IMG/VR virus record: IMGVR_UViG_2865859272_000007 | Coordinates: 15,399-79,398 of that record | Length of the DNA stretch: 64,000 nucleotides | DNA from: a virus | Taxonomy: Duplodnaviria; Caudoviricetes | Direction: 5' to 3' (one strand) | Shown: positions 4,398-64,000 of the stretch, one piece after another | How the letters are laid out: each line of letters opens with the position of its first letter | How positions within the stretch are numbered: the first letter of the stretch is position 1 | Position numbers and translations under genes: made by a program | The notes under the pieces: model-generated | The model's input: only the letters and a program-made list of their open reading frames with translations | Told to the model about the DNA's origin: nothing | Database searches by the model: none

Positions 4398-5219
4398 TCA
4401 GCGAGACAGCGGCTCGAAGGACACGGTCGGGGCGATGAGCCGACCGCGTCCGTCGGCCACGGCACGCCCGTAGTCGATCAACGTGTTGTTGACCTCGGCC
4501 TCGACGTGGTCCTCGGGCGACTGGCAGCCAGGGCAGCGGTACCCGGCCAGCCTGCCGTTCGCCATGACGGCGTTCCATTCCTGAAAGTCGCTGCCGTCCT
4601 TCCAGCATGCCCGGCCGCACGTGTCACAGTATCCGACCGGCCCAATCCTGCGCCCCACACCAACCGCCCAGTGTCCGTATCCCGGTAGCCCCCGTACAGC
4701 GTAGCGGCTACTGGCGCTGCCGGTTCTGGGCTTTGATCTGGCCGAGTAGTTGCGGCGCCAGCTCCCACGGGAACTCGTCGTGCGGCGGCATGGCGAGGAT
4801 CTGCCACAGCCACACCGCCCAGTCTCGGGGCATGGTCAGCGTGAACCGCTGGTGGTGGCTGATGGCGGCCCCGTCGTACATGGCCCGCGCCCAGGCAGCG
4901 ACCGCCAGGCGGCCAGCGTCGTGCGCCTCCGGCCACGGGTGGCACATCGACCAGTCCTCCATGCGTTCGGCAACGCACAGCCAGTCCAGGGCCTCGAAGG
5001 TGACCTGGTACGACGCCTTCCGCAGTTCGATCCTCACCGGGCGGCCTCGATGCCGAGAGCAGCCAGCAGCCTGGAGGCTTCGGCCCTGATCTCGTCCGCG
5101 GTGTCCCAGAAGGTGTCGAAATACTCGACGACCTTCTTGTCCATGAGCGTCGGGTCGTCCTCGTGCCCGTCCTCGTCGCGGTGGGCGTCGCGGACCTCGG
5201 ACCACTCCGCGTTCAGCAC
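4398..5219 (-). CDS. Three small leftward genes (4398-4658 with two CxxC, 4708-5037, 5034 to about 5219 acidic)
   Basis: Protein-like minus-strand ORFs with GTGA coupling at 5034-5037; the 5219 start is uncertain. Confidence 0.55.
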
Positions 5220-20695: not shown

Positions 20696-22052
20696 GGTAG
20701 TTGTCGTAATGAGGATCGTCGGGTCCGTCGTGCTCTGCGTGAGCGGAGAGGATCTCGTCCGCAATCGCACCCTTCCCGAAGGCGCGGAAGAGTTCAGCGA
20801 GAGCATCGGCCTCGGCGCATTGCATGGTGCAGTCGTAGTCGTTGGGCAGAAACTGCGCGAGTTCCGCCCACGTGTCAACAAAGTTACGGGCGGCGGCGAC
20901 GCGTGCGGCTGTTTCCTCCGCGTCGCGCCCCATGCCCTGGTCGTGGCAGTGCGCGCAGTACCCGTCTCCGGTGTAGTCGTCGCGTTCCTCGGGGGGTACG
21001 AAATCGTCGCTGCACCCCTTGCAGCGAAGCCAGCCATCAAACACGGCGGGTCACTCCCAGTCTCGTGCGTCAAGGATTATTTCTTCGGCGGTCACGATGA
21101 AGGCCCGGTCCGTGCCGACGAACCGGGCCTCGTAGATGCCGTCAACTACCTCGCTCCCCAAATCCACGGGTTCCCCGTTGTAGAGGAGTTCCGGCGGCGG
21201 GAACTCTGGCTCAGCCAACAGAAGATCGTCCTGGCAGTACGGGCAGTTCTCGTAATCCGGATGATCCTCGTGGTAGGCATCGTGCCAGCGATCAATCATG
21301 CATGTCATGTGCAGGGTGCTCCATCTCGTCATAAGCGGTTTCATCGTCCGCGTCCATCTCGGCTTCACAGGCAGGGCACCCGTAGAGCGTTCCGGGCCAG
21401 TGCGGATAGTCGACGTGTTCCGAATCGGTCATCACAGCCACTCGCTTTCACCGGTAGCGATGTTGAACACCGCCATTTCGCTCCGGGCGGTCGCCAGCGC
21501 ATACGCGCTGCGTTCCGCCGGAACGTGGTCAACGACGTCCAGGTATGCGCGCCCGTTCTCAACCCACACTCCGAAGTAGCGCGCATTCGGGTGGGTACTC
21601 ACGAAACCGGCCACGTCATCCGGGGTGATCCGGGAAACAGCCTTGACGAGCGTCCAGGACTGCCCACCGACCCAATATCCAGTTTCAGGGAGGGGTTGGC
21701 GGTAGCTGTCCACAGTGGCCCCGTCGCTACCGGTCCGAATGGCTCGGTACAGGGCGGCTGTGGTGGCAGGGGCATCGGTGAGGGTGTTAGTGGCCATGAC
21801 GGATCGGGTCTTTCCGAGTGGGATGGATTGACGTGTTCAGCGGTCGAAAACGACGCGTGCGCCGTAGTCGTATGAGGTGAAGCTGCGACCCTCGCCGTTG
21901 CCTCGCGTAGGCGCGTCCCAACGGCACACTTCCTGCCCGCTGCCGTCCTCATGGAGGCACGCGGGAATGGGCGCCGGAGAGAAGTCGTGCACGCTGGCAA
22001 CACCGAACAGCGCAACGGCGCTTGCTGCTGCGGCGACAAGGATTCTGCGCAT
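20691..22052 (-). CDS. Small leftward genes 20691-21044, 21051-21299, 21292-21432, 21432-21797, 21837-22052 (signal-peptide-like)
   Basis: Coupled TGATG/ATGATTGA junctions; acidic, His/Cys-rich products; GGAAAG RBSs. Confidence 0.7.
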
Positions 22053-22264
22053 GACGGACCACGCTTTCCGGGTGGGATGACTCTGTGAGGGTGGGAATGT
22101 GTTGCAGAGTCCGCTACGTAGCTCCGTTGGCCGGAGTCTGCGGATTGGTTACCGCCGGGTTATCCGAGTAGTCCCGAACGCGCTAGGCGCCTTGCTCAAG
22201 CGCCGTTATATGGCTTCCCTGCAACCCCCGGTGCTCCACACCTAGGGGACGCTCACACCATCAG

Positions 22265-22329
22265 TCCCCACGGTCCGAATCGAACGGACACCCCGTTTCC
22301 GAGAAACCGGGCGGGATCCTTTCGTGGGG
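22265..22329 (-). ncRNA. tRNA-like element lacking one arm
   Basis: 7-bp stem CCCCACG/CGTGGGG plus A discriminator; perfect T-arm GTCCG-TTCGATT-CGGAC; single middle hairpin. Confidence 0.65.
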
Positions 22330-22560
22330 GCGCTTTACACAAGGTGCGCGTCCTTTTCCCCTTCACCGGCCAGCTTTCCTAGTTCATGGAACGTCTGGGG
22401 CGACTGCCAGGGTCGCCGCTTGCCTCACCGGGTGGGGAAACTCTATAGAGGTGTCAAGCTAGGTGGGGTCCCTATAAGCGACGCGCCCGGTATGTCGGGG
22501 TCCTTCTACAGGGATTCTCATGTGGTAGGTACTCTGCCCCTCTGGGGTTTTCCCTTATGC

Positions 22561-22820
22561 TTCTATTGTACCCACCACACCCCTTATCACAACCCTTTCC
22601 CGAAGAAATCCACTGAACATTCCTAGATTCTTCTACTCATTAGTAAGAACTCAATCACAACAACATCAACTCTCATTCATTCAACTTCAATGATCACATT
22701 CACTACTGAATGATCAATTCATTCCCAACACCTCATCCATCCCAACATCACTAACCATCCTCACCACCATTACCCCTCCATACCCCACCCTCATCCATCC
22801 CTTGCCCACCCACCCCTATC
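22561..22820. other. Nearly G-free, AT-enriched non-coding tract
   Basis: About 11 G in 260 nt by hand count; none in 22711-22800. Confidence 0.85.
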
Positions 22821-23950: not shown

Positions 23951-24024
23951 CGCGGGGTAGTTCAGCTCGGTAGAACGCCAGGGTCATGACCTGGATGCCG
24001 CCGGTTCAAATCCGGCCCCCGCTA
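23951..24024 (+). tRNA. tRNA-Met (CAT), initiator-like acceptor stem, CCA not encoded
   Basis: Full cloverleaf: CGCGGGG/CCCCGCT, D stem GTTC/GAAC, anticodon stem CCAGG/CCTGG with loop GTCATGA, T-arm GCCGG-TTCAAAT-CCGGC. Confidence 0.9.
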
Positions 24025-38604: not shown

Positions 38605-41600
38605 GTGCCGGTTACGAATCTCGGCTTCAATATCGTCAGTGCCTACAATGGCCGCGGCGTCCGGCAGGCGCAGCGCGACATCCGGTCGCTCAACTCTCAG
38701 ATCATCCGCGTCTCCAACATCACTCAGGGCGTCTCCACGATCGGAATCGGCGCTCTCCGCGGAGTCGCGGTGGCCACCGCCCCGGCGCTGCTGACTCTTA
38801 CTCGCGCTGCGACGTCTTCGGTGGCCTCGATCACCGCGATGGGCGTAGCGGCGGGTTCGGTTGGTGGCATTTTCGCCGGCGCCATGACTGGCGCGATCAA
38901 GCGCACTATCGAGATGCGGGATTCTACCGGAGCCCTGCGCGGCGAGGTCGATAAGGCAAAGGCAGCCCTGGACAAGGAGAAGGCGGCACTCGCCGGCCTC
39001 AAGCCCGGTAGCCAGGCGTACAAGAACCAGCTTGATCGGATCAAGGAAGCGCAGGCTGCTGTCACCGAGGCGCAGAACGAGTACAACGCGTCCTTGAAGA
39101 GGATGACTCCCTCTCAGAACGCGTTTCTGAAGAGCCTTGACCTGACAACTACTGCTTGGAACAAGTTCATTGTTGCCACGCAGGACAAAACGTTGACGGT
39201 GGCCAGCCAGACCCTGACCGGTGTGGCTGGGGCGATCGGCAAGATGAAGCCGGTTGTGGACGCGATTTTCCCAGCGGTTCAGCGGGTGAGTCAGGCATTT
39301 CAGAAGTGGGCCACCGGCTCCGGTATGGACCGGTTCATTCAGGTGCTCCTCGATAGAGGGGTTCCCGCGCTGGACGCTCTTCTTCGTGCAGGCCGGTCGG
39401 TGATGACCGTGCTCGGCGCGGGTTTCCGCGCATTCGCTCCTCTTGGCGCGAGCATGGCGAACAGCATCATGCGTGGCGCTGCGGCCATGGCGGCCTGGGC
39501 TCAGGACGGCGGGTTCCTTCGCTTCATCGAGCGGGTGCGGCAGGACGCGCCTCAGGTCCGCGAGTTCCTGCGGGCCTTGAGGGACGGGCTCTCGCAGCTC
39601 CTCCAGGCGATCAGGGAGCTCGGACCGCTGGCGCTCGGGCTGTCGACGGCGCTCTTGCGGATCATCGCGTCCACGCCGATCCCCGTCCTTCAGGCGATCA
39701 TCCTGTCCTATACGGCATGGAAGACCGCCCTGCTGGGACTGATCGTCGTCAAGGGTCTGTTCATCGGCGTGATGGGCTTGGCGCGGGCCGCGGTCTTCGC
39801 CTACAGCCTCGCGCAGATCCTCCTGACCGGAAGCACAAGGCTGCTCGGCGCCTCGACAATGGCGCTGAGCGTGCAGCTCCTCGTCATGCAGGCCCGCATG
39901 CTGATCATCGCGGCAGCGACCAAGGTGTGGGCAGCAGCGCAGTGGCTCCTGAACATCGCCATGCGCGCGAATCCCATCATCTTGATCGTCTCCCTGATTG
40001 CCACACTGGTCGCGGGCATCATCTGGGTCGCCACCCAGACACGCTTCTTCCAGACCGTGTGGAGCGCGGTATGGAACACCGTGAAGGCCGTAGCGGACTT
40101 CATCTGGAGCGCCCTTCAGTTCGGATTCCGCGCGATGGTGACGTTCTTCGTCATCGTTTGGCAGACCGTCTCAGGCGCCCTGGTCGCTGCATGGAACGTG
40201 GTCTGGAACCTCATGCGGGTGGCCGCCCAGGTCGTCTGGACCGTCCTCCAGGCGGCGTGGAACGTCTTCATCAACACGCTCCTCACGATCTGGAACGCGG
40301 TTTCAACCGCTCTTGCGGCGGCCTGGAACGCGGTTTGGAACGGCATCCGAGTAGCTGCACAAGCGATCTGGACCGTCCTCCAGGCGGCCTGGAACATCTT
40401 CATCAACACGCTCCTCACGATCTGGAATGTGGTTTCCACGGCCCTTGTCACGGCCTGGAACTTCGTCTGGAACGTCATAAGTACGGCCGCACAGGGGATC
40501 TGGACCATCCTTCAGGCGGCGTGGAACGTCTTCATCAACACGCTGCTGACCATTTGGAACACGGTCTCCGCTGCCCTTCGAGCGGCATGGGACCTCGTCT
40601 GGACCGGGATCCAGACCGCAGCAGAGACGGTGTGGAACTTCCTCACCGCGGCGTGGGAAACCTTCACCAACACGCTGCAATCGATCTGGGACGGCTTCAA
40701 AGACGGGTTCATGTCCGCCATCGAAGCTGTCTGGAAAAGCATCCGGTCCACGGCCGAGTCGGTCTGGCGCAGCATCGGTGAGGTCATCGAGGGCGCCATC
40801 AACGGCATCATCGGGATCATCAACCGGATCATCGGTGCTTGGAACAGGATCACGGGCGCTGTCGGGCTCGATTCGCTCAACATTCCGACGATCCCCACCG
40901 TCAGCATCAACTTCGCGTACGGCGGAATCGTTGGGGAGGCCCCCGGGTTCGCCAAGGGCGGCACCGTCGCAATGCACCGCAGGGGCGGTGTCCTCCCTGG
41001 GTATTCGCCCGGTCGGGACACCGTTCCGGCCATGCTCAGCCGCGGCGAGGGCGTCCTCGTGCCGGAAGCGGTCCGCGGCCTGGGGCCGAACTTCGTCCAC
41101 TGGGCGAACCGGCACTTCTCCAGGGGCCGGGCCGGTAAGAACGTGGCCTACCCGGGCTACGCCGTCGGCGGGATCGCCGGCATCGAGGCGTGGCAGCGGG
41201 TCGGCGGCGACGTCGGCTGGGCCTTCCTTCAGGGCGGCGGTGTCGTCACGGGCGACGACGACACCCCGCGGCCGAACATCGGCCAGGGGGCGTTCTTCAG
41301 CAGCGACCCCAACCGCAGGGAGCGCAGCCCCAGCTTCGGTGGCGTTGCCGGTATCGGCAGTCCCGAAGCGCCGGAAGGGCCGATCAGCGGGTTCGTCACG
41401 AACGTGTTGGGATTCCTTGGGGAAGCGGCGATTCGTGCCGCGTTCAGCTTTGCGACCCGTCTGCTCGACGGCTTCAGCATGGCCGGCAACTTCGGGAAGA
41501 TCCTCGTCGCGGGCACCAAGAAGATCCTCAACGCCATGATCGACGATCTGATTCGGCGGGACTCCGAGGCCAAGGCCGAGTTCGAGTCGATGGCGGTCGC

Positions 41601-58812: not shown

Positions 58813-58890
58813 GCAGTCCCCTTGCCCGGACTCGAACCGGGGCTTCCGTGGTCGGTGCACCCTATGGGTGATGAGCTCGACCCCAGGGCG
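58813..58890 (-). ncRNA. Degenerate tRNA-like element (clear T-arm only)
   Basis: CCCGG-TTCGAGT-CCGGG followed by CAAGGGGACT; acceptor pairing only about 5 of 7. Confidence 0.35.
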
Positions 58891-58953
58891 GAGTCGGGTG
58901 CAACGGCCGTTTCGACGTTCTGCCTGACTGAACTACAAGGGGCAGCACACTGG

Positions 58954-62127: not shown

Positions 62128-62494
62128 GATCAACCTTTCTGGTTTGTAGCGGCTGTCCAGAGCTACCCCTGTGCGCTTGTCCAGGCTACGCCGGTTTTGC
62201 ACTGATAGCTCCCGTGTGGCAGGGGGTGCTTGCGTGCGCTGCGGGCTGCTGATCGGGCAGCTTGTCTGCCAGCAGGAAAGAATCTTGATGATTCGCTTGT
62301 GTTCATGCACACAGCGGCGTATACCTGAAGACAGGCAGGCAAAACCGACGAATCGGGCAAAGTGGCCCGGGGTTCGGGAGCCGGCCCCGGGAGCCCGAAA
62401 AGGGTCTCCCAGCAGTCTTCGAAAGCTTCGGGCGCCGCCACTGCACAGGCATGCGGTCATAGGTCTAGGCCACCTTGGCACGGTCTGCTTTACC

Positions 62495-62552
62495 GCCTCC
62501 GATAGGCGCACTCGGGCGCCAGACTTGGTCGGTTCGAATCCGGTCGGAGGCA
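62495..62552 (+). ncRNA. tRNA-like mini element lacking one arm
   Basis: GCCTCCG/CGGAGGC 7-bp stem plus A; GGCGC-ACTCGG-GCGCC hairpin; T-arm GTCGG-TTCGAAT-CCGGT with two G-U pairs. Confidence 0.6.
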
Positions 62553-62570
62553 CGTGGAGGTGAGACGCAC

Positions 62571-62978
62571 ATGGACGGCAATAGAGGCGCAGACGTCACG
62601 CTCGGCGGCAAGGTGTTCAAGGCCCTGGCGACGGCGGACTCTCTCACAAAGCAGGGCCGAATCCGCGAGGCTCGCATGATCATGTCCGAGGTGCGACGCA
62701 TGCAGCGCGCCGTGAAGTTCCCCCCTCGCACCGTGTCACACCTGAAGGGGCGGTGGCTGTACCGCCTCTGGGCGGCCGACGACACCCTTCTCTATGTCGG
62801 GATCACCGACCGCGGCAGAGAGCGTGAACGGGAACACGTCCGGACGAAGATCTGGTGGCCGGAGGTTCACCATATAACGGTGGAACCGATAGCCACCCGG
62901 GCTGAACTTCTGCATCTTGAGCGAGTGGCGATCAGCAGAGAACGCCCCCGCTACAACACCCAGCACAATCGGGACTGA
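62571..62978 (+). CDS. GIY-YIG nuclease family protein
   Basis: LYRLW..DD.LLYVGIT, R..EH...K.WW, E..AI..E.PRYN. Confidence 0.85.
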   Translation: MDGNRGADVTLGGKVFKALATADSLTKQGRIREARMIMSEVRRMQRAVKFPPRTVSHLKGRWLYRLWAADDTLLYVGITDRGREREREHVRTKIWWPEVHHITVEPIATRAELLHLERVAISRERPRYNTQHNRD

Positions 62979-62980
62979 GG

Positions 62981-64000
62981 TCATCGGATTGCCCGCACGG
63001 CCCCGGCTGCCGAGCGAGTCAGAAATCTCTGACCGCGTAGCCGAGTGTTGCGAGCTGCAACTTCGGCCTGAAGGCCGAGGTAGCGTTCCGTGGTTTCTTG
63101 GTTCTTGTGGCCGAGGAATACCATCGTTTCTCTCAGTGCGTGATCATGCGAGACCTCGTCGCGGAGGCGATCGAAGTAGATCCGTGCCACAGATCGGCGA
63201 ATCGCATGCCACGCCTCACCGGCTTCAAGGTGGATGCCGCAGGAAACCAGGAGGGCCTTGAGGCGTTCGGTCGCCCACATGTATGAACAGTGCTTCGTCG
63301 GGTCGGGTACGTAGTACACGTACCCGGTACCCGCGGCGTTCCTGCGCGACCAGCCTGGAAACAGGTAGATCCGTTCCGCCGTTGGGATGGCGCTGTCTTT
63401 TGTGTACCACGCCAGGTAGCGCCGAATCTCTTCTTCAAGGTCGAGGGTCAAGGGCAGGGCGTCGAAGCGGCCGGTCTTGAGGACCCACACGTATAGGTCA
63501 CCTGTTTGCAGGTCTATGTCACTAAGTTTGATCTTTCGTATGTCGGAAATCCGAAGGGCGGTCGATGCTGCAACAGCGATCATGCAGCGGAGTATTGGAT
63601 GCTCCGCCTTTTCGATCAAGAGCCCCAGTTCATCCTCCTGGAGGCGAGTAGGAGCTATCTCGTGCGGTGCGCCGCGCTCCCTAAAAGGTGACTTCGGGCA
63701 TCGCAGTTCCTGCCGGATCCATCCCTTGTGCTTGGCGTAGCGGAACAAGGCGTTGATCGCCGAGCGGTACGACGTGCCGGTCTTCGGGCCTCGGCCCACG
63801 AGGATCCCGCCATCCCCGTACAGGAAGTCGGCCAGATCGGATTCCCTGATCCCTGCAACCTGTCGTCCCTGGAATCGGCCGGCCAGGCGGTTGTTGACCA
63901 GGCGATACTGCTTGATCGTGCCGGCTGGCACGCCGTGCGCCTGCTGGGCCTGCGTGAACCTGACGACGGCTTCATGTAGGGACGGGTGATCGGTACCCAC
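62981..64000 (-). CDS. int: Tyrosine recombinase/integrase (5' end may extend beyond the window)
   Basis: Catalytic set: LRISDI (R), LKTG (K), HAIRR (HxxR), LGH...TERY (H, Y). Confidence 0.93.
   Translation of the reverse strand: MGTDHPSLHEAVVRFTQAQQAHGVPAGTIKQYRLVNNRLAGRFQGRQVAGIRESDLADFLYGDGGILVGRGPKTGTSYRSAINALFRYAKHKGWIRQELRCPKSPFRERGAPHEIAPTRLQEDELGLLIEKAEHPILRCMIAVAASTALRISDIRKIKLSDIDLQTGDLYVWVLKTGRFDALPLTLDLEEEIRRYLAWYTKDSAIPTAERIYLFPGWSRRNAAGTGYVYYVPDPTKHCSYMWATERLKALLVSCGIHLEAGEAWHAIRRSVARIYFDRLRDEVSHDHALRETMVFLGHKNQETTERYLGLQAEVAARNTRLRGQRFLTRSAAGAVRAIR

Follow-up and report, generated by a model that had tools for sequence, protein, structure and literature searches.

A 65-nt element, termed E1, heads a block of leftward genes in a prophage whose host is Streptomyces-like; it combines a tRNA acceptor stem and T arm with a single variable hairpin. 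On the comparative evidence presented here, E1 is neither a chance occurrence nor a lone decayed tRNA. We tentatively favor, with slightly less than even confidence, the reading that E1 is a conserved, transcribed tRNA-like minihelix in the operon leader that would work like a t-element.

The window, a stretch of 64,000 nucleotides corresponding to positions 54512-118511 of contig C189, is enclosed in an island of ~80 kb and ~65% G+C, and the flanks of the contig are ~75% G+C. The island starts at a host tRNA-Leu(caa) (contig position 39894), and its genes have relatives in Streptomyces phages and genomes. Since a terminase, a portal, and a tape-measure-sized gene are encoded on it, the island is a prophage of a Streptomyces-like host. 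Genes in the window run rightward to ~16.9 kb, leftward from 22052 down to 17762, and rightward again from 22828; this last run contains a tRNA-Met (23951-24024), the terminase, and the structural genes. E1 is located where the leftward block and the packaging genes are separated by 0.78 kb of gene-free DNA, and its strand and position bear out the proposal of an earlier note that it heads the leftward block on the operon strand. Coordinates of all features are collected in the table.

Several other observations were made in this part of the prophage. The phage tRNA-Met, just ahead of the terminase genes on the plus strand, has an initiator-like C1xU72 mismatch and scores 58.8 bits against the Rfam tRNA model. 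Between the leftward promoter and the rightward genes, at ~22600-22800, the minus strand is almost devoid of C (the plus strand of G) and the G+C content is lower; this stretch may be linked to the virion genome end or to unwinding. A box of the form ..ATCCCAC(C/T)CGGAAAG..TCCGTC-ATG is repeated on the minus strand at 22053-22093, 21798-21836, and 22428-22453. It directly precedes the first two start codons of the leftward block and has no Shine-Dalgarno motif, and kindred boxes (CATCCCCCA.GAGAGAACGG..ATG) are present in the related loci L054-L056. At the right end of the island is a tyrosine-integrase-like ORF (62981-64000, minus strand) with a C-terminal LGH..T..Y motif that was read by eye. 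The DUF932 gene, which follows the GIY-YIG-like gene in relatives, is here at the left end, beside tRNA-Leu(caa) (C189 39894-41222). Because the integrase-like ORF and the DUF932 gene occupy opposite ends of the island, the att site lies between them; a search for an att direct repeat of at least 16 nt found none for the prophage. E1 itself was considered as the att site and rejected, since the att junction is elsewhere, with tRNA-Leu(caa) at contig position 39894 and the integrase at the right end.

Table. Coordinates in the window of E1, the other tRNA-like elements, and associated features.
Feature	Position	Strand	Remarks
E1, 65-nt armless tRNA-like element, including discriminator A at 22265	22265..22329	-	From sequence, fold, strict scan, and orthologs
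E1 acceptor 5′ strand, CCCCACG	22323..22329	-	7/7 Watson-Crick pairs with 22266-22272
E1 center, 33 nt: AA linker and one long bulged hairpin with a 3-nt loop	22290..22322	-	
E1 T arm, GTCCG-TTCGATT-CGGAC	22273..22289	-	Stem 22285-22289, loop 22278-22284, stem 22273-22277
E1 acceptor 3′ strand, CGTGGGG	22266..22272	-	Discriminator A follows at 22265
GTCCCC box, able to pair with GGGGAC (22264-22269)	22245..22250	-	Not conserved in L054/L055
First gene of the leftward block	21837..22052	-	71-aa small protein, signal-peptide-like N-terminus
Predicted ~500-nt untranslated leader containing E1	22053..22558	-	No ORF of at least 40 aa on the minus strand
Promoter-like site for the leftward leader, TTGTGA-16-TACAAT	22565..22592	-	Consensus match only; block aligns with L054, L055, and L056 leaders
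E4, 125 nt plus discriminator	58817..58942	-	~85 nt before a small gene, ATG 58731
Near-invariant 57-nt block with CCACCTT, just upstream of E2	62429..62485	+	
E2: acceptor, D-arm-like hairpin, T arm, no anticodon arm	62495..62552	+	Ends 18 nt before ATG 62571

The 7-bp acceptor stem of E1 continues without a gap into a T stem of 5 bp, as it does in tRNA; the loop of the T arm fits TTCRANY and a discriminator follows the acceptor stem, while a D arm and an anticodon arm with a 7-nt loop are lacking. The stem starts with C1-G72, and no CCA is encoded. These features agree with the earlier description of a 65-nt element with a perfect acceptor-type stem and a TTCGATT T arm, now placed on the minus strand at 22329..22265. 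The single further hairpin without a 7-nt anticodon loop was likewise recovered upon folding, its loop being 3 nt. In the minimum-energy fold of E1 the 7-bp stem is retained and the T hairpin is shifted, with a z-score of -1.5 that is not significant alone. The additional hairpins that had been suggested down to ~22100 did not hold up: a fold of 348 nt has a z-score of -1.05, no better than shuffled sequences. ARAGORN made tRNA-Met 23951-24024 its sole call in the window, with E1 called as neither tRNA nor tmRNA, and Rfam, both at gathering thresholds and at E values up to 10 on a 131-nt stretch, returned no match for E1 to tRNA (RF00005), tmRNA, or YrlA. These searches, which the earlier note had proposed, thus call E1 neither an ordinary nor a decayed tRNA, and they gave no indication of the suggested kinship with YrlA or tmRNA. 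A host tRNA fragment was also considered and rejected, as the best host tRNA differs from the 3′ half of E1 at no fewer than 7 of 25 positions.

The frequency of such structures was determined with a strict scanner that demands a 7-bp acceptor stem, a 5-bp T stem, a TTCRANN loop, and an acceptor 3′ strand abutting the T stem. On both strands of the whole 7-Mb genome, the scan recovered 62 tRNA matches and only 14 non-tRNA places, two of which, E1 and E2 (62495-62551), are inside the prophage; a longer size limit yielded a third match in the window, at 58942..58818 on the minus strand. The background in the host genome is ~1 non-tRNA match per Mb of strand, compared with three matches in the 64-kb window and four in 99 kb of DUF7178-linked viral contigs, where three of the four are E1-type and lie on the operon strand. 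A complementary 7-mer was also found upstream of 3 of 30 random genomic T-arm-like sites used as a negative control, and a single acceptor stem in GC-rich DNA is therefore weak evidence. One unpublished genome (G154) is counted in this control, on which none of our claims depends; the genus-wide T-arm pattern search was swamped by coding-sequence matches and was used solely as a negative control.

Direct DNA homologs of the E1 leader were absent from 50,697 phage records and from 60 relatives and 400 genomes of the genus, and its use as an exact pattern gave no match in IMG/VR. With the terminase as anchor, only relatives of 45-51% identity were obtained, all without the element. The 71-aa first gene had no word-sharing homologs, and HMMER gave distant, non-syntenic domain relatives only. 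Relatives were instead found via the DUF7178 gene, located 1.4 kb downstream, at 79-84% identity. The close ones, from S. microflavus (L054), S. solincola (L055), and a Logan contig, share a layout of divergent genes, 1.5-2 kb of gene-free DNA, and then the operon. A MAFFT alignment of four leaders (window, L054, L055, and L056) has the predicted promoter in register in all four and the T arm aligned in the window, L054, and L055. The L055 element reads CCCCAGT..GCCCG-TTCGAGT-CGGGC-ACTGGGG-A, and that of L054, which spans 47 nt and has one acceptor mismatch, reads TCCCTTG..GCCCG-TTCGATT-CGGGC-CACGGGA-G. Scanning added G102, with the acceptor stem ATTTCTG/CAGAAAT, the IMG/VR contigs L124/L125 (CCCCTGG/CCAGGGG, 43 nt, ending ...ACCA), and L127 (GCCCCTG/CAGGGGC, 41 nt). 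Most orthologs thus came from a scanner that demands pairing, and only L054 and L055 are unbiased tests.

The six E1-type members all lie upstream of DUF7178 on the operon strand, and the elements are consistently on the coding strand, in leaders or between cistrons; the L124 element, for example, starts 7 nt past a stop codon and ends 38 nt before the next ATG. At every acceptor position at least two pair types occur among the six. T stems of GTCCG, GCCCG, and GGCCG are each accompanied by the matching partner, and T-stem pair 2 covaries (U-A, C-G, and G-C). The T loop is kept as TTCGATT, TTCGAGT, or TTCGAGA. The center is hypervariable, at 9-61 nt across the six members, and the minimal forms of 41-47 nt retain exactly the two helices. 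In E1 the distance to the ATG is 212 nt, and neither this distance nor the center is conserved. The 5′ strands were not in register in a full-length MAFFT alignment of E1-type elements, and pairs were therefore counted by a script anchored on the T loop. A covariance model (R2) built from three minimal forms (L124, L127, and L054) returned E1 as the top match outside the training set in 342 kb, at 23.3 bits and a rough E value of 0.028, followed by L055; the score of E1 is modest because the model penalizes its long center. By this match, and by its position relative to the DUF7178 operon on the operon strand, E1 belongs to the same type of minihelix. Relatives have kept the truncated form described in the earlier note, and its stems show compensatory changes.

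The element is absent from L056 and from 12 more distant DUF7178 loci, and is therefore dispensable. DUF7178 and a long noncoding region at the right end are also present in the Arquatrovirinae phages Andris and Alvy, and no tRNA-like element was found in that region. Another type of minihelix, GGCAGG./.CCTGCC with the T arm ACGGG-TTCAACT-CCCGT, is found in L054 (4664-4730) and L056 (~5087-5157), ~40 nt upstream of the gene that opens the leftward operon. At this position L055 has a 10-bp long-range stem, and the prophage in the window has neither.

In the reading that we favor, E1 would form an acceptor stem stacked on a T arm, with a hairpin that is free to vary in place of the D and anticodon arms. 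A transcript started at the predicted promoter would be cut by host RNase P at the 5′ edge of E1 and, after the discriminator A, by RNase Z or the nucleases that trim the 3′ ends of tRNAs. Such cuts would separate the upstream part of the leader from the operon mRNA, whose 5′ end would then lie ~212 nt before the ATG, and would free a tRNA-shaped RNA of ~65 nt, with a presumed effect on expression of the operon. In the host, RNase P is represented by its RNA component (277 bits) and RNase Z by a full-length gene of RNase Z-like sequence (283 bits). RNase P, RNase Z, and the CCA-adding enzyme all accept a coaxial acceptor/T-arm helix as their minimal substrate. E1 has the structural hallmarks of a t-element, namely a conserved T-arm motif, a position in a leader or spacer, and placement on the coding strand. 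We favor a processing signal acting in cis because the coaxial helix is retained, the elements lie on the coding strand, the host enzymes are present, and t-elements offer a precedent.

The prophage holds two other tRNA look-alikes. E2 sits between two divergent genes, one HTH_3 repressor-like and the other GIY-YIG-like. Homologs of the GIY-YIG-like gene from metagenomes (60-73% identical) keep the synteny, and each of these loci has a tRNA-like element 20-35 nt before the ATG. Among 10 distinct sequences of this family, 93% of the cells at stem positions are paired and 7 pairs are changed on both sides. All five pairing measures are far above a slid-partner control, the observed values are each matched by no more than 1 of 500 shuffles, and RNAalifold independently recovers the fold, in which many G-U pairs occur. 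Only the anticodon arm is missing from E2-type elements, which have retained both the T loop and a D-arm-like hairpin whose loop contains GG. A covariance model of the family (R1) gives E1 15.9 bits, compared with 16.7-28 for unrelated true tRNAs and 44-72 for members; judging from these scores, E1 shares the E2-type design but not the E2 sequence family. E4 reads CCCCTTG..(D-arm-like TA-GTTC..GAAC, ~70-nt insert)..CCCGG-TTCGAGT-CCGGG-CAAGGGG-A-CTG, with the insert of ~70 nt in the place of the anticodon arm. It has the ends CCCC..GGGG-A-CTG in common with E1 and was called by neither ARAGORN nor Rfam.

The leader that contains E2 (62429-62573, plus strand) has further features. Across loci L037-L052 its upstream block follows GGGCGCCGCCACTGCACAGGCA.GCGGTCA.AGG..TAGGCCACCTTGGCACGGTC with one covarying stem, and CCACCTT within the 57-nt block resembles an anti-Shine-Dalgarno sequence; the acceptor strands of E2 read CCTCC and GGAGG. 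No Rfam family matches this two-part leader, and the GIY-YIG-like gene is probably headed by a structured RNA of an undescribed kind. Directly downstream of the GIY-YIG-like gene, relatives have a slot occupied by true tRNAs (Asn, Gln, and an Arg cluster) or by armless derivatives of 52-71 nt (L046 3026-3077, L050 ~1730-1800, L040 3383-3456, L047 3072-3144, and L052 1591-1818 are the slot loci). The occurrence of true tRNAs and armless forms in one slot shows the origin of such elements and that they are interchangeable with tRNAs in place. Some slot elements are followed by a conserved motif, CACTGCAAACGCCYC-hairpin-CGGTAACCAnTCC-GRGGTAGACCAGAAAAGG, which has no Rfam match and shows covariation in its outer stem. 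A motif downstream of E1, CGGTAACCAATCC, matches a conserved motif of the E2-locus relatives, but this match is a 15-mer only (nhmmer E = 0.13) and serves as a lead rather than as evidence.

The main rival to a processing signal, which we regard as a minority possibility, is that E1 acts in trans: the released acceptor/T-arm RNA, devoid of an anticodon, would serve as a sponge or decoy that engages host factors acting at tRNA acceptor ends or the T arm, such as tRNA-targeting defense toxins, modification enzymes, or the CCA-adding enzyme, and placement in a leader would provide timely expression. The presence of three different tRNA look-alikes in one prophage is consistent with such a role, as are the encoded ...ACCA of one ortholog, the replacement of true tRNAs by armless forms at the same slot in relatives, and the tRNA elbow that the E2 family keeps in its D-loop-like GG hairpin and T loop. 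A variable center would also be expected if only the top half is read. However, most members lack CCA, and the elements are always linked in cis to a downstream gene on the same strand. A processing signal and a released mimic are not mutually exclusive, and the two cannot be told apart from sequence alone; the comparative data fit both of these readings better than a switch. It is a long shot, although one worth stating, that Streptomyces phages harbor widespread, undescribed anticodon-less tRNA mimics that are cut from leaders and serve as trans-acting decoys against defenses that attack the acceptor end or elbow of tRNA. The switch that the earlier note had suggested, in which GGGGAC would alternate between the tRNA-like fold and pairing with GTCCCC and so gate operon expression, seems improbable to us. 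The pairing does exist 13 nt downstream of E1, and a similar GGGGACT/AGTCCCC pair is present behind E4 at 58.8 kb; the base rate for each is ~4.8%, the fraction of GC-rich 6-mers in the window that have a complement within 60 nt. Its conservation did not stand, since the pairing is absent from orthologs L054 and L055, and the switch reading is weak for this reason. The 348-nt fold, moreover, keeps the acceptor stem while scoring no better than shuffles, and the ribosome-binding region is 190 nt further on, so that no direct link to translation is visible.

We also doubt that E1 is the functionless remnant of a phage tRNA gene in decay. In favor of decay, tRNA genes are found in phages of this group, relatives have tRNAs at places that armless forms occupy, and some relatives lack the element. 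Yet a neutral relic would lose its pairing, and here both the acceptor and the T stem have remained paired across many double changes, even as the center was exchanged as a whole; that the stems are compensated makes a neutral relic unlikely, and the minimal 41-47-nt forms have kept precisely the two helices. Least probable, and in our view very unlikely, is a chance inverted repeat or a site that functions at the DNA level, such as a protein-binding, att-like, or cos-linked repeat. The region does lie between the right-arm and packaging genes, where cos/pac sites and operators are expected, and an apparent acceptor strand accompanies 10% of T-arm-like sites. Against this, no host tRNA matches the 3′ half of E1, the elements are always oriented with the operon, the sequence of the T loop is specific to one strand, the G-U pairs of the E2 family are mismatches in the complement, and matches are enriched over background.

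Searches of the literature yielded no description of such armless tRNA look-alikes in phages, and RNase P and RNase Z have been documented to punctuate the messages of organelles but, as far as the literature was searched, not those of phages. Cleavage of such elements by the two enzymes would mean that temperate Streptomyces phages use the host tRNA-processing machinery to punctuate and mature their messages. The long, seemingly empty leaders at the heads of phage operons would then be explained, annotators would have a new feature to call, given that tRNA finders miss such elements, and compact, portable RNA-processing tags would become available for Streptomyces engineering. Released RNAs that act in trans would represent a new layer of phage-host conflict around tRNA.

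Several known systems resemble E1 in part. In tRNA-mRNA co-transcripts and in the mitochondrial tRNA punctuation model, mRNA ends are defined when the enzymes of tRNA processing cut out tRNAs that precede or separate cistrons. The prophage relatives with true tRNAs in the slots of armless forms are comparable to such tRNA-mRNA co-transcripts, but E1 cannot decode because it has no anticodon arm. Small tRNA-like modules are also cut from longer transcripts by RNase P and RNase Z in mascRNA/MALAT1 and MEN-beta. This family is vertebrate and nuclear and has no sequence kinship with the prophage elements; E2 matches the mascRNA family (RF01684) weakly, at 15.2 bits and far below the cut-off of 42.5, and E1 does not match it. 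The tRNA-like domain of tmRNA and the YrlA module share with E1 an acceptor stem and T arm without a decoding arm. Unlike tmRNA, E1 has no tag reading frame or pseudoknots and holds both acceptor strands within 65 nt, and unlike YrlA it has no match to the Rfam model at E values up to 10. The C4 antisense RNA of P1/P7 is, like E1, a phage leader RNA with a mimic of the acceptor/T-arm stack, through which it is matured by RNase P; C4 is an antisense repressor with defined targets. Plant mitochondrial t-elements in 5′ leaders direct cuts by RNase Z and RNase P that make mRNA ends (PMC1920247). They adopt non-canonical tRNA-like folds with a conserved T arm, occur in 5′ leaders or after genes, and can receive CCA-like additions once released (PMC1920247). 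A tRNA-like fold with a conserved T arm inside an mRNA leader is what they have in common with E1. The t-elements are organellar and experimentally mapped, whereas E1 belongs to a bacterial prophage and has ends predicted from sequence; and of the cloverleaf E1 keeps even less than t-elements do, with one variable hairpin.
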